Position numbers and translations under genes: made by a program. From the IMG/VR virus record IMGVR_UViG_2740892019_000005, positions 1-10,614 of that record: a stretch of 10,614 nt of DNA. One strand, given 5' to 3'. Each line of letters starts with the position of its first letter. The first letter of the stretch is position 1. Positions 1,328 through 10,614 of the stretch are shown here, piece by piece. This stretch comes from a virus. Lineage: Duplodnaviria; Heunggongvirae; Uroviricota; Caudoviricetes. Under the pieces are notes generated by a model, which saw only the letters and a program-made list of their open reading frames with translations, did not search any database and had not been told where the DNA came from.

Positions 1328-1345
1328 GTGCGACCACGGTCGCAC
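1328..1345. repeat. 18-bp perfect palindrome GTGCGACC-AC-GGTCGCAC, copy 1 of 4
   Basis: Exact 18-mer also at 2995-3012 and 3215-3232, and as the reverse-centre form (GT centre) at 6250-6267. The 8-bp arms are perfect reverse complements. Confidence 0.85.
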
Positions 1346-1370
1346 AGCAATGAATCAACATCCTGCATGC

Positions 1371-1438
1371 TCGCGCAGAGGAGTTCCCCGTCGGACTACG
1401 GTCATGGTTAATGCGGGAATACAGCGACGATACAGCGC
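1371..1438 (+). repeat. 68-bp direct repeat, copy 1 (second copy at 3137-3204)
   Basis: tcgcgcagaggagttccccgtcggActacggtcatGgttaatgcgggaatacAgcgacgatAcagcgc versus copy 2, with only 4 transition differences (capitals). Confidence 0.85.
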
Positions 1439-1554
1439 ATGATGTGTCAGGCTTGAATACCTTTATCCGTTAAAAGGGATATCAGTTAAGTTATCCCGTG
1501 CAGGGTATAAGCCATTATCAAAGCCACTCAGTAGCGAATGGCTTTTGTAATGGA

Positions 1555-2971: not shown

Positions 2972-2994
2972 CAAAACCTCCTGACAAAGATACC

Positions 2995-3012
2995 GTGCGA
3001 CCACGGTCGCAC
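2995..3012. repeat. 18-bp palindrome GTGCGACCACGGTCGCAC, copy 2; 23 bp upstream of the 280-aa gene start
   Basis: Exact repeat of the 1328-1345 sequence. Confidence 0.85.
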
Positions 3013-3136
3013 GCTCCTGAATACATGCCCTGTTTCTTCCACCCTCGCACAGGACTGGCGAGCATGAGGGACAAACCCGCGAATCAATAGCGCGGTAAAA
3101 ACCCGGTGTGCATCGTTTTTGATTATTTCCGCACAC

Positions 3137-3214: not shown

Positions 3215-3232
3215 GTGCGACCACGGTCGCAC
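3215..3232. repeat. 18-bp palindrome GTGCGACCACGGTCGCAC, copy 3
   Basis: Exact repeat, 10 bp after direct-repeat copy 2. Confidence 0.85.
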
Positions 3233-3604: not shown

Positions 3605-4066
3605 TTAATTCAGGCATTGCGTCCTGATGTACTCCTGCAAATATCCAACCTGTTTCGTCACTGTGACGATTCGCTCTCTGAGGATGAAATAATCCCGTTC
3701 AGCGGAGTCAGTAAGTCGGGGGCCGGTAGCATCGCCCAGGCCGCCGGTGATGGTCGTTCCGTTCGCGGGACATCTGGCGTTGAGGTGCAGCCCACACTTG
3801 CCAGTGCGAACACAACGCTGCAAATCATCAAGCTGCTTTTTGGCATCAGCTAAGTCCTTCGTGTATTTGGCATCCAGAGCCGCTACATCACGCTGGCGGA
3901 TCTGCATGTCTTTGATGGTAGCGTTCGCCAGCTTCAACTCTCTGGCGTTTTTGTCGCGCTGCTCTTTATAGGAGATGGCGTTATCACGGTAATGATTAAC
4001 AGCCAACGACAGGCAGACGATGATGCAGATAACCAGTGTGGAGATAATCGCGGTGACTCTGCTCAT
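3605..4066 (-). CDS. Rz: Spanin inner-membrane subunit Rz (i-spanin)
   Basis: N-terminal TM segment ([20 protein letters not shown]) followed by a coiled-coil periplasmic domain, similar to lambda Rz. Start ATG 4064-4066 overlaps the R stop (TAATG). Chosen over the upstream ATG at 4078. Confidence 0.85.
3658..3846 (-). CDS. Rz1: Spanin outer-membrane lipoprotein Rz1 (o-spanin), embedded in the +1 frame of Rz
   Basis: Signal peptide ending in lipobox-like ...ALASVGC-TS, proline-rich body, and C-terminal TPLNGIIS motif as in lambda Rz1. Lies entirely within Rz. Confidence 0.75.
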
Positions 4067-4563
4067 TACTGCCCCCACAAACAGACTTCACGCTCAATCT
4101 CACGGCGAGTCATCAGCCCTTTCCATTGCTTACCGCCAGCATATGTCCAGCGACGTAGTTGATCACATGCACCTTTGATATCGCCCTGGTTGATTTTGCG
4201 AAGAAGCGTCGATGTTCTGAAATTGCCTGCACCCACGTTGTAAACGAACGAGTAAAGAGCACCACGCGTTGTTTCCGGTATATCGACTTTGATGTACGGG
4301 TTAATTTGTCTGGCGACAGTAGCAAGGTCTTTATTCAGGAGAGCTTTGCATTCTGCTTCGGTATACGTTTTACCGAGCATAATGTCTTTTCCTGTATGCC
4401 CGTAACATACAGTCCATACACCAACGATGTCTTTGTAGGGGTTATGTTTCACACCTTCCAGACCATCGTTGCCGCTCGGACCAGAGATGAGCACAGATGC
4501 TATGGCAATAGCCCCGCCACCAATAGCAGTTGCGACAGCTTTGCGTAATGATGACTGCATCAT
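4066..4563 (-). CDS. R: SAR endolysin (phage 21 R-type lysozyme)
   Basis: [38 protein letters not shown]... has a Gly/Ala-rich N-terminal signal-anchor-release segment followed by a T4-lysozyme-like catalytic domain. Close to the phage 21 R sequence as I recall it. Confidence 0.9.
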
Positions 4564-4832
4564 ATTTCCTTCGGTGCTCTCTTTCCCAATTCACCAATAA
4601 CCATCGCCGTGGCGGAAATATTATTGGCATCAGTTTTATCCAATATGTCCTGCAATATCTTCGTGCGCTTCATCTGCTCGCGTTTATTGAGCCGGTATGT
4701 AAGTACACCGAGGATAATGCTGAACGCGACACCGATAATGAAGCCCCAATCCTGCAATGACAGGCTGGCAAAGAACGCAGTAAGACCAGCACTACCATAA
4801 GGTGCGCTGCTGTATCGTTCATCCATCTTCAT
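4560..4832 (-). CDS. S: Holin, probable pinholin (class II, 2 TMDs) with dual-start motif MKM
   Basis: 90 aa with two adjacent hydrophobic segments ([11 protein letters not shown] and [18 protein letters not shown]) and a charged C-terminus. Stop overlaps the R start (ATGA). Preceded by GAGGT. Confidence 0.75.
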
Positions 4833-4928: not shown

Positions 4929-6050
4929 TTACTCAAATAACTTTTTCACTTCATCAACTGTCTGAAGATAACGTTCACCCTCAATCTCAATACCGATTGC
5001 CTGACGACCTAACTTCAGCGCGGCTTTAATAGTAGAGCCTGATCCCATAAAGAAATCGGCAACGATATCTCCGGGGCGTGAACTACTTTTTATAATATGT
5101 TCCATCATCGCTGCAGGTTTTTCACATGGGTGCTTGCCAGGATAATATTGCACAGGAGGAAACTCCCATACATCGGTATAAGGTACATCAGCAGTAACAT
5201 GAAATGGGCGGCGCAAATTTTCATACTGAGCCTTCAAATCATCATACTGCTTCTTTACTTCCTCATAATGCAATTTCAGATCGCTATAACGCTTTTCATG
5301 TTCTGAATAATCAACATTAAAAGGATATGGACACGGGACACCGAGTGAATCTGCCTTCCTGCGAAATAATTCGCATAGTTTATTAAAATCAATTAATGAT
5401 GGAAGCCGCCACTGCGAATAAGAAAACCAGTGCGAACACATCTGCTTTCCTGTCGCTGAATTAATGTCTGCGGCTGATATATCTAACTGACGGCGAGCCA
5501 GCGAAAAAGCATCAATTAGTGGAGAAAAAATATTTTTTCTTAGATCTGCACATTTTGAAGCATAACCTGACTGACCTTTAGCATAACCTGACGCGCCGTA
5601 ATGCTCTGCAAATAATATTCTTTCAGTAGCAGGAAAATAAGCCCTTAAACTTTCTTTATGACAACCGCGCCACATACCACTGGGTTTAGCCCAAATGATA
5701 TGGTTCAGAACATTGAAACGGTCGCGAGTTAATAATTCAATTTTTGACGCAAGGCGAGAGCCGGTAAACATATACAGGCTGCCATTAGGGGCCAATATCC
5801 GCCAAAATTCTGCCAAAAATTCGTCAATCCACCCCAAAAAGTCAGCATCGCTATCCCACTGGTTATCCCATGCGTTAGCCTTTACGCCGAAGTATGGTGG
5901 GTCTGTTGCAATCAAATTGACCGAGTTATCAGGGATGGTTTTGATAAATTGCAGAGAATCTGCGCAAACGAGTTGTGCGCCATGAATATTAGTGGTTTTG
6001 AACATAGCTATTATTTTTTTGCCTGGGTAAGCTAACCCGGCGATGCGCAT
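4929..6050 (-). CDS. DNA methyltransferase, beta-class (motif IV DPPY precedes motif I FxGxG), probably N6-adenine; YhdJ-like architecture
   Basis: N-terminal ...VNLIATDPPYFG... and C-terminal ...GDIVADFFMGSGSTIKAALKLGRQAIGIEIE... Alternative start at 6003-6005 (MFKTTNIHG...); neither start has a strong SD. AT-rich relative to the flanking lysis genes. Confidence 0.85.
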   Translation of the reverse strand: MRIAGLAYPGKKIIAMFKTTNIHGAQLVCADSLQFIKTIPDNSVNLIATDPPYFGVKANAWDNQWDSDADFLGWIDEFLAEFWRILAPNGSLYMFTGSRLASKIELLTRDRFNVLNHIIWAKPSGMWRGCHKESLRAYFPATERILFAEHYGASGYAKGQSGYASKCADLRKNIFSPLIDAFSLARRQLDISAADINSATGKQMCSHWFSYSQWRLPSLIDFNKLCELFRRKADSLGVPCPYPFNVDYSEHEKRYSDLKLHYEEVKKQYDDLKAQYENLRRPFHVTADVPYTDVWEFPPVQYYPGKHPCEKPAAMMEHIIKSSSRPGDIVADFFMGSGSTIKAALKLGRQAIGIEIEGERYLQTVDEVKKLFE

Positions 6051-6140
6051 CGCGGGTGGGCTTTAGGTTCAGCCTATAGCTCTGGCATGGGTTGACCGCA
6101 GGACAAGCTGCAACTTGTCCTGCGCCCACTTTTCAGGCAC

Positions 6141-6162
6141 AAAAAAACCGCCATAAAGGCGG
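6141..6162 (-). terminator. Intrinsic terminator on the minus strand (tR'-like), about 55 nt downstream of the inferred late-promoter start
   Basis: Minus-strand RNA ...AAG-CCGCC-UUUAU-GGCGG-UUUUUUU: 5-bp all-GC stem, 5-nt loop, U7 tract. Confidence 0.5.
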
Positions 6163-6201
6163 CTTGTTGGCTGTTGGGTACAAAAAACACAACTTAATAA
6201 A

Positions 6202-6230
6202 ACAATAACTAAAAACCGTCATTTTGCCAA
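6202..6230 (-). promoter_or_regulatory. Sigma70-like promoter on the minus strand: -35 TTGGCA (6225-6230), 17-bp spacer, -10 TATTGT (6202-6207); candidate late promoter
   Basis: Hexamers and spacing read directly from the sequence. Position between the upstream small genes and the MTase/lysis cassette, with a short leader ending in a terminator, mirrors the lambdoid pR'-tR' arrangement. Confidence 0.45.
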
Positions 6231-6249
6231 GCTTTTTCGTTTTTGTGCT

Positions 6250-6267
6250 GTGCGACCGTGGTCGCAC
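6250..6267. repeat. 18-bp palindrome, copy 4 (GT-centre orientation; extended perfect palindrome CTGTGCGACCGTGGTCGCACAG at 6248-6269)
   Basis: Centre at about -63 relative to the inferred transcription start of the late promoter. On the plus strand it is followed by TTTTT. Confidence 0.85.
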
Positions 6268-6272
6268 AGTTT

Positions 6273-6500
6273 TTAGAAAGTTGCCTGCTTATATTCATCG
6301 GTCAAAGAATATCGACCAGATCCACTACGCTTTGCAACCCCAAAACAGATCATCTGTTCGATGATAAATTCAACGGCAACTTGACTCAAAAAACAGGCTT
6401 CGCTTAACTCTTTCAGGGAAATGCGTGGGTATCCACGCATAACACATTCCACACTCAGGGCCGCTTCAGTCATATTTCCACGAATTTCATTAATATTCAT
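6273..6500 (-). CDS. Small hypothetical protein (75 aa), possible winged-helix DNA-binding fold
   Basis: ATG 6498-6500 is preceded by GAGAGG. Sequence ...ISLKELSEACFLSQVAVEFIIEQMICFGVAKRSGSGRYSL... is compatible with a wHTH. It occupies the position where Q would be expected, but is too small and lacks a zinc finger. Confidence 0.55.
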   Translation of the reverse strand: MNINEIRGNMTEAALSVECVMRGYPRISLKELSEACFLSQVAVEFIIEQMICFGVAKRSGSGRYSLTDEYKQATF

Positions 6501-6513
6501 AACGCCTCTCTAA

Positions 6514-6735
6514 TCAATCTTGAAACTGGAAATCAACATCAGCCATAAAGCGGTTCAACTCAGCCAGTTTTGACCCCATAGTCCCAACTAAGCGACCAGC
6601 CAGTCGGTCTGCTAGGTTGGTACTGTTGAAACCATATTCCTTTTCGAAACGTTCAACCTTCTGCCACAACTCATACAGTTCGTTAGCTATCTCCGCAACG
6701 TCGTCGCGCATTTTTTCGTTACCTTGATAATTCAT
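6514..6735 (-). CDS. Small acidic hypothetical protein (73 aa from the RBS-supported start; the ORF-track start at 6753 adds 6 aa)
   Basis: GGAGGA lies 4-5 nt upstream of the ATG at 6733-6735. No family recognised. Confidence 0.5.
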   Translation of the reverse strand: MNYQGNEKMRDDVAEIANELYELWQKVERFEKEYGFNSTNLADRLAGRLVGTMGSKLAELNRFMADVDFQFQD

Positions 6736-6825
6736 AATATCCTCCAAATTCATATAGTTAGTAGGTTATTGCCCCTCAATGACACGAACTGTAACTCTGC
6801 CAAACGAACACATCCAGTGTTATTT

Positions 6826-6841
6826 TTCACTTTTTAGTGAA
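6826..6841. promoter_or_regulatory. Inverted repeat TTCACT-TTTT-AGTGAA in the toxin-antitoxin promoter region; candidate antitoxin operator
   Basis: Perfect 6-bp arms about 60 bp upstream of the toxin start, followed by GGAGG RBS. Confidence 0.4.
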
Positions 6842-6900
6842 ATTTTTAATTTGCGCTGTTTTCTCGTTTTGGTGTATTTTATGGGTATGGAGGCTATAAT

Positions 6901-7212
6901 ATGTTTAACGTGATAACCCACCCTGCAGCACTGGATGAACTGCTTGAACTACCAGATGATTTGCGAGGTCGCATGACCAGATTAATTGAGCGACTGGAGA
7001 AAGAAGGCAACAAACTGAAGATGCCTCATAGCCGTGTAATAGGTGGAGGGCTTTTTGAACTACGAGTAGGGGATAAAAACATCGCAAGAACGCTGTACGC
7101 CTACGCGACTGGTAACGAAATTTATCTATTGCATGCATTTGTAAAAAAGACACAGAAAACACCGGTGAAGGCTATCGAAATCGCCAGAACTCGCCTGAAG
7201 GAGATGAACTGA
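6901..7212 (+). CDS. Type II toxin, RelE/ParE superfamily, HigB-like (phage Gp49-like)
   Basis: 103 aa; ...GGGLFELRVGDKNIARTLYAYATGNEIYLLHAFVKKTQKTPVKAIEIARTRLKEM matches the conserved C-terminal signature of Gp49/HigB-like toxins as I recall it. GGAGG RBS. Stop overlaps the antitoxin start (ATGA). Confidence 0.8.
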   Translation: MFNVITHPAALDELLELPDDLRGRMTRLIERLEKEGNKLKMPHSRVIGGGLFELRVGDKNIARTLYAYATGNEIYLLHAFVKKTQKTPVKAIEIARTRLKEMN

Positions 7213-7499
7213 TGAAAGCGAAAGGCATCCCGTTTAACGAAGTAAAAGAAAAACTCCTCAACACTCCAGAAGCCGTCAAAGGATATGAAGAGGCCGACAA
7301 AGAGCTGGAGATGGTAGAAATGTTATACGAAATGAGGGAAAGAGCAGGTTTAACGAAATCAGCTCTGGCTGAACGAATGGGGTTGCGCCCGTCAGCCATC
7401 AGCCGCCTGGAAAGCAATCCTTTAGGGGCAAGTATGAAAACTTTGGCTAAATATGCTCATGCCTGCGGCGCAACCATCGATATTCGCGCTGTTTATTAA
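7212..7499 (+). CDS. Type II antitoxin, XRE-family HTH (HigA-like)
   Basis: 95 aa with HTH ...LTKSALAERMGLRPSAISRLESN...; translationally coupled downstream of the toxin (toxin-first order typical of HigBA). Confidence 0.8.
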   Translation: MKAKGIPFNEVKEKLLNTPEAVKGYEEADKELEMVEMLYEMRERAGLTKSALAERMGLRPSAISRLESNPLGASMKTLAKYAHACGATIDIRAVY

Positions 7500-10468: not shown

Positions 10469-10547
10469 TACGATTCTCCTTGCCCTTTTACAAGACGGGA
10501 GAAAATTGCGGATACATATTTAGCCTGATGAATAGCATCAGCCAGGG

Positions 10548-10614
10548 GGTAATGACTCCAACTTACTGATAGTGTTTTATGTTCAGATAATGCCCGATGA
10601 CTTTGTCATGCAGC
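10548..10614. mobile_element. IS1 terminal inverted repeat and first 67 bp (element continues beyond window end)
   Basis: GGTAATGACTCCAACTTACTGATAGTGTTTTATGTTCAGATAATGCCCGATGACTTTGTCATGCAGC matches the IS1 end (insB-proximal IR) as I recall it, with one or two differences. Confidence 0.8.

Follow-up and report, generated by a model that had tools for sequence, protein, structure and literature searches.

The late-control layout considered here is already described for the phage-plasmid N15, and there is little new in our main finding. In N15, Ravin, Rech and Lane (J Bacteriol 2008) reportedly described a split layout of Q and the late promoter, in which Sop sites aid late expression. Their study is said to have confirmed the promoter p52, Q antitermination and the leader terminators in N15. 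Mutation of IR2 or IR3 reportedly delayed lysis and reduced p52 expression, and the stimulation reportedly needed Q, IR2 and SopAB together. For the step of facilitation by SopB, we rely on this reported work.

In the general Q mechanism, Q loads at a -10-like, sigma-dependent pause element (PMC9388147). The legend to Fig. 1 of the same paper depicts a canonical lambdoid cassette in which the Q gene directly adjoins PR' (PMC9388147). PF06323 corresponds to the Q82 family (PMC9388147). The cro and q genes of telomere phages are joined in a single operon, located in immB (PMC4488713). The SopB proteins of N15 and the F plasmid are 49% identical, and F SopB does not use N15 sites (PMC7205306). 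Oligonucleotides for the N15 inverted repeats IR1-4 are given in Table 4 of that study, and they built an N15 centromere on which N15 SopB forms foci (PMC7205306).

Here, we analyzed a 10,614-nucleotide stretch of DNA from a Caudoviricetes record in IMG/VR (IMGVR_UViG_2740892019_000005). We refer to this whole stretch as the window, and coordinates are those of the window unless another sequence is named. We consider it highly probable that the region at 6141..6269 controls late transcription in an N15-like linear phage-plasmid, with a split Q/promoter layout and a SopB site. This is supported by features of the sequence itself, by homology and synteny, and by the family of sites and the occurrence of Q and SopAB in related elements. 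From this evidence, we infer where transcription starts and pauses, that Q acts here, and that SopB binds and bridges in this element.

Identity of the element and gene order

Around the control region, approximately 1 kb shows 98.9% identity to Escherichia phage YDC107_1 (genus Ravinvirus) and to PhiR46_1. The DNA identity of the control region to N15, phiKO2 and an Enterobacter relative is about 74-77%. Collinearity with 46-48 kb Escherichia phage-plasmids extends over 75-91% of the window. These similarities assign the window to a linear Escherichia phage-plasmid of the N15/phiKO2 type (Ravinvirus).

The gene order on the minus strand is DUF977, Ead/Ea22-like genes, gp50, gp51, the control region, an N6/N4 methyltransferase, holin, lysozyme, Rz, a DUF4406 gene and the small terminase gene. 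It is the order of N15 from gene 42 to gene 59, followed by gene 1. The methyltransferase (4929..6005, minus strand) is the homolog of N15 gene 52, as indicated by its match to PF01555 (E = 1e-46) and by the annotations in relatives. Of the genes in the late transcription unit, it comes first. The lysis genes (3605..4832, minus strand) are holin-like (4560..4832), lysozyme (4066..4563) and Rz (3605..4078). They were assigned with the Pfam families PF00959 and PF03245, and the holin match is narrowly below the threshold.

Two small minus-strand genes are located upstream of the control region. The gp51-like gene (6273..6500) encodes 75 residues, and its homolog phiKO2 gp51 is labelled a winged helix-turn-helix protein by NCBI. 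The window protein has a weak, sub-threshold match of the winged-helix type (PCI), and no DNA-binding domain above the threshold. The gp50-like gene (6514..6753) encodes 73-79 residues (73 in relatives) and belongs to the YubE family; a homolog is listed with PF27407. Neither protein has a match to a Q family in a Pfam domain search. At 73-79 residues and with no Q-family match, gp50 and gp51 were ruled out as cryptic Q proteins.

A Gp49/RelE-type toxin gene (PF05973, 6901..7212) and an HTH_3 antitoxin gene (7212..7499) are found on the plus strand, between the Ead/Ea22-like genes and gp50, and adjoin the upstream side of the gp50-gp51 pair. Their homologs in N15 are genes 49 and 48, and they probably serve as a plasmid addiction module.

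The late promoter and the terminated leader

The late promoter, a homolog of N15 p52, is located on the minus strand at 6202..6230. Its -35 hexamer TTGGCA (6230..6225) and -10 hexamer TATTGT (6207..6202) are separated by a 17-bp spacer. By itself, this match (9 of 12 positions) is at chance level, as 18 such sites are found in the window and 16.4 are expected. A block consisting of the palindrome described below, an A-rich tract, the -35, the -10 and a terminator is kept in N15 and phiKO2, with flanks that are only about 74% identical. In the N15 annotation, genes 51 and 52 are separated by a region with a -35, a -10 and a stem-loop, and the annotation of phiKO2 has a 'putative late promoter' and a 'terminator' in the same place. 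In a five-way alignment of the window, YDC107_1, pEA26_5, N15 and phiKO2, TTGGCA, TATTGT and the hairpin coincide column for column with the annotated signals.

The A-rich tract CACAAAAACGAAAAAGC (6231..6247, minus strand) separates the palindrome from the -35. It is invariant in most columns of the five-way alignment, and appears to resemble an UP element. On the other side of the promoter, the block 3' of the -10 reads TTAAGTTGTG in the window, CTAAGTTGGG in pEA26_5 and N15, and CTATGTTGGG in phiKO2. It includes a -10-like hexamer, TAAGTT (6196..6191, minus strand), which fits TAnnnT, is kept in the aligned relatives, and would be located at about -1 to +5 if the assumed start is correct. 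By analogy with the general mechanism of Q, TAAGTT is a candidate sigma-dependent pause element and a candidate site of Q loading.

Transcription was assumed to start about 7 nt 3' of the -10, at about 6195, and both the length of the leader and the offset of the palindrome depend on this assumption. With this start, the terminated leader is about 55 nt long and the center of the palindrome (6258.5) is located at about -63.5. The leader ends in an intrinsic terminator (6141..6165, minus strand) with the stem AAGCCGCC/GGCGGTTT (6165..6145), a 5-nt loop and a run of seven T residues (6147..6141). Folding predicts an 8-bp hairpin followed by a U7 tail. In the alignment, the N15 stem_loop at 41229..41250 and the 'terminator' of phiKO2 are the homologs of this terminator.

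Together, these elements have the organization of a Q-dependent unit: a sigma-70 promoter, an intrinsic terminator no more than about 200 nt further on, and late genes (methyltransferase, lysis, terminase) beyond it. A preliminary description of this DNA had reported TTGGCA and TATTGT 17 bp apart on the minus strand, a GC hairpin with a U7 terminator at the end of a leader of about 55 nt, a palindrome at about -63, and an antiterminator-type late layout. Our analysis bears out all four. The hexamers are present, the hairpin folds as an 8-bp stem, and the palindrome is perfect over 22 bp. The short terminated leader precedes the methyltransferase, lysis and packaging genes, and the same signals are annotated in N15 and phiKO2. 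In a sensitive blastn search, N15-like phages alone matched the late promoter region, and no similar DNA was found beside the Q82-type genes of classical lambdoid phages.

The palindrome belongs to a family of dispersed sites

The palindrome CTGTGCGACCACGGTCGCACAG is located on the minus strand at 6269..6248. It lies 5 nt past the gp51-like stop codon and 20 bp upstream of the -35. Its 18-bp core GTGCGACCACGGTCGCAC (6267..6250) is an exact match to the N15-type inverted repeat. The core is that of the 18-bp inverted repeat GTGCGACCnnGGTCGCAC in N15 IR1-IR4, and the window core is identical to IR1 and IR4. In addition, the oligonucleotide published for IR3 equals the N15 row of our five-way alignment at the palindrome (PMC7205306). 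The window contains four exact copies of the core, where 0.00 are expected; for a 14-mer, the expectation is 0.23. Two of the other copies (2995..3012 and 3215..3232) are at the position of N15 IR4, downstream of the DUF4406 gene, and the pair is also found in relatives. The fourth (1328..1345) is upstream of the small terminase gene and is also present in pEA26_5 and in the related loci L007, L008 and L011. The late region of the window thus has three further cores, as compared to one (IR4) in N15. On the minus strand, a T-rich run follows the core at 2995..3012, which scores as terminator-like.

The placement of the sites is constant among relatives. In N15, the 14-mer GCGACCnnGGTCGC occurs exactly four times, and the copies are IR1-IR4. 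They are found inside repA, 185 bp past gene 40 (Q), 23 bp before the late -35, and after gene 58. In the relatives pEA26_5 and YDC107_1 and in ten metagenomic or genomic contigs, four to six copies are found: one is in repA, one precedes the conserved -35 block by 27 bp, and the late region holds two or three. A sister copy follows the q stop codon at a distance of 185-212 bp (185 in N15; 212 in pEA26_5, YDC107_1 and the ten contigs). Across sites and phages, 16 of the 18 core bases are invariant. The homologous sites in phiKO2 have an identical core and are annotated 'putative plasmid partitioning site'. pEA26_5 encodes both SopA and SopB, and its SopB is 73% identical to that of N15. On sequence and position, the palindrome is the predicted SopB (ParB-type) centromere site homologous to N15 IR3. 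We favor a SopB site over the operator of a dedicated activator because of the identity to the N15 repeats, the dispersed but constant placement, and the presence of SopA and SopB in a relative.

An activator had been proposed in the preliminary description, with the palindrome as a class I site. If so, a dedicated protein such as the winged-helix-like gp51 would bind at about -63 and SopB would be uninvolved. The center at about -63.5 from the presumed start suits this idea, as do the name given to gp51 homologs by NCBI and the weak PCI match of the window protein. However, the same core recurs at three places in the window that do not have the geometry of a promoter, and inside repA in relatives. 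It is identical to proven SopB sites of N15, and gp51 contains no DNA-binding domain above the threshold. The spacing between the repeat and the -35 also differs by 1 bp between N15 and the window, which argues against a strict face-of-helix geometry and has no bearing on bridging. As a dispersed repeat identical to SopB sites, the palindrome was rejected as a class I activator site, and we regard a dedicated activator as very improbable. What stands of the proposal is that something acting at the palindrome may promote late expression, as it reportedly does in N15. A different role could be played in RNA. The palindrome may mainly form a hairpin, which would act as a terminator or insulator between the gene 50-51 unit and the late unit, or stop antisense transcription. 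Its position just past the gp51 stop codon and the TTTTT that follows the hairpin on the plus strand are consistent with this, and so are the terminator-like sister site at 3013..2994 and N15 IR4, for which the annotation gives a putative terminator stem-loop. Read in the sense of gene 51, however, the hairpin is followed by an A-rich and not by a U-rich tract, so that it is no canonical terminator for this unit. Moreover, invariance at 16 of 18 core bases is expected of a protein site, whereas a hairpin needs complementarity only. We think it unlikely that an RNA hairpin is the main role of the palindrome, and possible that a role as terminator or insulator coexists with SopB binding, which we prefer as its predicted function.

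Location of the antiterminator gene

In the domain search, no Q gene was found immediately upstream of the promoter, where the homologs of gp50 and gp51 are located. The relatives place it elsewhere. In N15, phiKO2, YDC107_1, pEA26_5 and ten of ten contigs, q is found beside cro in the immB region, 5.2-5.6 kb upstream of the promoter. The ten contigs are those that encode exactly the 140-residue DUF977 protein of the window. N15 q is gene 40, which adjoins cro and is located 5.4 kb upstream of the -35. YDC107_1 and pEA26_5 have a gene for a 236-residue Q in the same place. In all ten contigs, a Q gene of PF06323 precedes the start of DUF977 by 1,060 bp and is flanked by P22_Cro and an HTH repressor. 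The Q proteins of the relatives match PF06323 with E values of 1e-84 to 1e-110. They are 66.5% identical to N15 Q and 28% identical to phage 82 Q, and no relative with a solved structure was found for Q by sequence.

Projected onto window coordinates, q would be located at about 11,530-12,240. This is 0.9-1.6 kb past the right edge, or more if IS1 is a simple insertion. Q, SopB and the IR2-type site lie outside the window and are known here from relatives. The 'no Q' puzzle is a matter of the window boundary and of the known split layout of telomere phages. The preliminary description was right that neither upstream gene (75 residues at 6273..6500; 73-79 residues at 6514..6753) is Q, and its suggestion that late expression depends on a factor encoded elsewhere agrees with the position of q in all relatives examined. 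It had also stated that a canonical Q gene just outside the window and acting on this promoter would refute its reading, and the location of q in all relatives examined fits the first part of this. The absence of Q next to the promoter, which it treated as an anomaly, is the normal N15-type architecture, with q beside cro in N15, phiKO2, YDC107_1, pEA26_5 and all ten contigs.

The right edge of the window is formed by the terminal 67 bp of an IS1 element (10548..10614, plus strand). Copies of IS1 in 4,944 E. coli genomes match these 67 bp at 100% identity. Phage homology ends at 10547, and the insertion is 79 nt before the end of a phage 3'-5' exonuclease gene. No record spanning the phage/IS1 junction was found among the phage, plasmid and complete E. 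coli collections searched.

An alternative is that q, and perhaps the immunity region with it, was lost in a deletion or rearrangement marked by the IS1. This would leave an orphan promoter, with every transcript ending at the leader terminator, and a defective element. Consistent with this, the IS1 interrupts the exonuclease gene on the stretch that separates the late promoter from the position expected for q, and the junction is unmatched in the phage, plasmid and E. coli collections. However, q is kept in ten of ten contigs with an identical DUF977 protein, and all other genes of the window are intact, with identities of 95-99% to functional-looking relatives. Ending in an IS copy is typical of contigs from short-read assembly, as it is the usual outcome of such assembly and implies no deletion. 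Since such contig ends are common, we rate the loss of q as distinctly unlikely. The suggestion in the preliminary description that the prophage has lost Q found nothing in its support, although a small probability of it stays for this genome because the window ends inside IS1.

Proposed mechanism of late control

In the mechanism that we propose, RNA polymerase would start at the sigma-70 promoter (6230..6202) and, when Q is absent, stop after about 55 nt at the terminator (6165..6141). After induction, a Q82-family antiterminator would be supplied by the cro-q operon in the immunity region, about 5 kb upstream. Q would load on polymerase paused just past the start, probably at TAAGTT. The modified polymerase would then pass the leader terminator and later terminators, and transcribe the methyltransferase, lysis, packaging and structural genes. 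SopB is expected to occupy the palindrome as one of the dispersed centromere sites, primarily for plasmid partition. By analogy to N15 IR3, SopB bound here and at the sister site downstream of q probably bridges the q region and the late promoter, which would raise late expression.

A structured leader RNA precedes the methyltransferase gene

The 120 nt between the terminator and the ATG of the methyltransferase gene are more conserved in the five-way alignment than the surrounding coding DNA, and the fold of the 194-nt leader has a z-score of -5.1. The conserved sequence corresponds to a structured RNA of about 110 nt (6018..6138, minus strand). From 5' to 3', its architecture consists of AAAUGGGC, hairpin H1 (9-14 bp), an irregular hairpin H2, AAGGCCCAC, hairpin H3 with a palindromic top, and GAGCYUA. 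In the window, the 5' arm of helix P1 is UGGGC (6124..6128), H1 is at 6098..6123, Px pairs AAGC (6060..6063) with GCUU (6029..6032), and H3 is at 6036..6056, all on the minus strand. The 3' arm of P1 (GCCCA) is partly common to Px, so P1 and Px compete. The 5' arm of P1 (AUGGG) has a possible alternative proximal partner, CCCAU. Such competing P1/Px pairings would suit a switch.

To examine the distribution of the element, we used loci gathered through protein homologs of the methyltransferase. The element is found upstream of homologous genes in Pseudocitrobacter, Serratia, Morganella, Vibrio, Pseudaeromonas and Chitinimonas. With nhmmer, it was detected once each in 73 of 111 sequences, always on the strand of the gene. 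Copies include those in loci L004 (41254..41374), L001 (4664..4787), L018 (6693..6817), L023 (6862..6988) and L028 (6669..6795), and about 40 other loci, in coordinates of the respective locus. In several Morganella prophages, the element lies directly 3' of a coding region. Its linkage is to the methyltransferase gene rather than to a Q-type promoter.

The pairing was analyzed with a covariance model of H1 and Px (AGGC:GCYU), and the formal covariation tests are confined to these two helices. The seed contained only copies from Morganella, Vibrio, Serratia and Pseudaeromonas; the groups of the window, N15, phiKO2 and Chitinimonas were kept outside it. The model recovered the window copy with 30 bits (E = 3e-5), and also those in N15, phiKO2 and Chitinimonas. 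In the model alignment of 42 distinct sequences, 95.7% of the cells are paired, as compared to 76% in shuffles (0 of 500 reach the observed value) and 29-46% with slid partners. The covariation score is 0.49 versus 0.16, and double-sided changes are found in 8 of 12 pairs among the 42 sequences. These numbers lean towards structure because the alignment was fitted to the model; anchor-based counts agree with them. Plain MAFFT alignments mixed the stem registers, and as a result RNAalifold recovered only P1 and the base of H1.

Searches of Rfam 15 gave only chance-level matches for the window at E <= 1, and no match over the element at the gathering threshold in five divergent loci. Genes that carry the element do not have a Shine-Dalgarno sequence. 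Their homologs that lack the element carry AAGGA or AGGAGG at a normal spacing. We tentatively propose, with somewhat less than even confidence, that the element is an undescribed class of structured cis-regulatory RNA, which is tied to phage N6/N4 methyltransferase genes in Enterobacterales, Vibrio, Aeromonadales and a betaproteobacterium. Our guess is that it controls translation of the downstream ORF, be it the methyltransferase or a zinc-ribbon protein similar to Mu Com. The leader RNA may be new. If this is true, an RNA that is absent from Rfam would provide a new handle on how phages time or dose DNA modification.

Three further observations concern this element. In Vibrio, Pseudaeromonas and Chitinimonas loci (L018-L021, L027, L028), a small ORF with a CxxC...CxxC pattern is located between the element and the methyltransferase gene. 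The one in L018 (about 6839..6955) encodes 38 residues and matches Mu Com (PF10122) with 21.5 bits, below the cut-off of 22.9. No such ORF is found between the element and the methyltransferase gene in the window or N15. The top of H3 is always a short DNA palindrome that differs by lineage: ATGCGCAT, GTGCAC, CTGCAG or TCGCGCGA. It could be simply part of a stem, or a recognition site, for example of the methyltransferase itself. Finally, L052 contains a divergent copy at about 1340..1500, which reads AAATTGGGTG...CCCTCCCCAA...AAGCCTCGCCGCG...GGCTTACC. It was missed by nhmmer and by the covariance model at E < 0.01, and the family is therefore probably wider than counted.

Comparison with known systems

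N15-like phage-plasmids keep the late promoter and the antiterminator gene kilobases apart, with ParB-type centromere sites beside both. GC-rich palindromes in genomes of this type should be read first as partition sites.

The locus is most directly compared to N15. The two share the order of gp50, gp51, inverted repeat, promoter, terminator, methyltransferase and lysis genes, as well as the -35 hexamer and the core of the inverted repeat. The terminators share the stem CCGCC/GGCGG and the U7 tail, and differ in the loop. As seen through relatives of the window, q beside cro and the sister repeat just downstream of q are also common to both. Unlike N15, with which the DNA identity is about 74%, the window has TATTGT in place of TATCTT as the -10, 1 bp less between the inverted repeat and the -35, three further inverted-repeat sites in the late region instead of one, and an IS1 upstream. 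The region upstream of phiKO2 gene 52 has homologous elements, which were annotated by the depositors, and an identical palindrome core. Identity to phiKO2 is likewise about 74%, and its -10 region and leader differ in sequence.

The locus also resembles the lambdoid Q82 cassette. Both combine a sigma-70 promoter that looks constitutive with a -10-like element where the transcript begins, followed by an intrinsic terminator within about 55 nt and by late lysis and structural genes, and the Q proteins of the relatives belong to PF06323. In contrast to the lambdoid cassette, q is 5.2-5.6 kb away in the relatives, ParB-type sites flank both partners, and the blastn search showed no DNA similarity to lambdoid PR' regions. 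The palindrome is similar to sopC in the SopABC system of the F plasmid in that a ParB-type SopB binds, or here is predicted to bind, a short inverted repeat. However, the F plasmid has 10 tandem copies at one locus, whereas the N15-type sites are single copies scattered over the genome.
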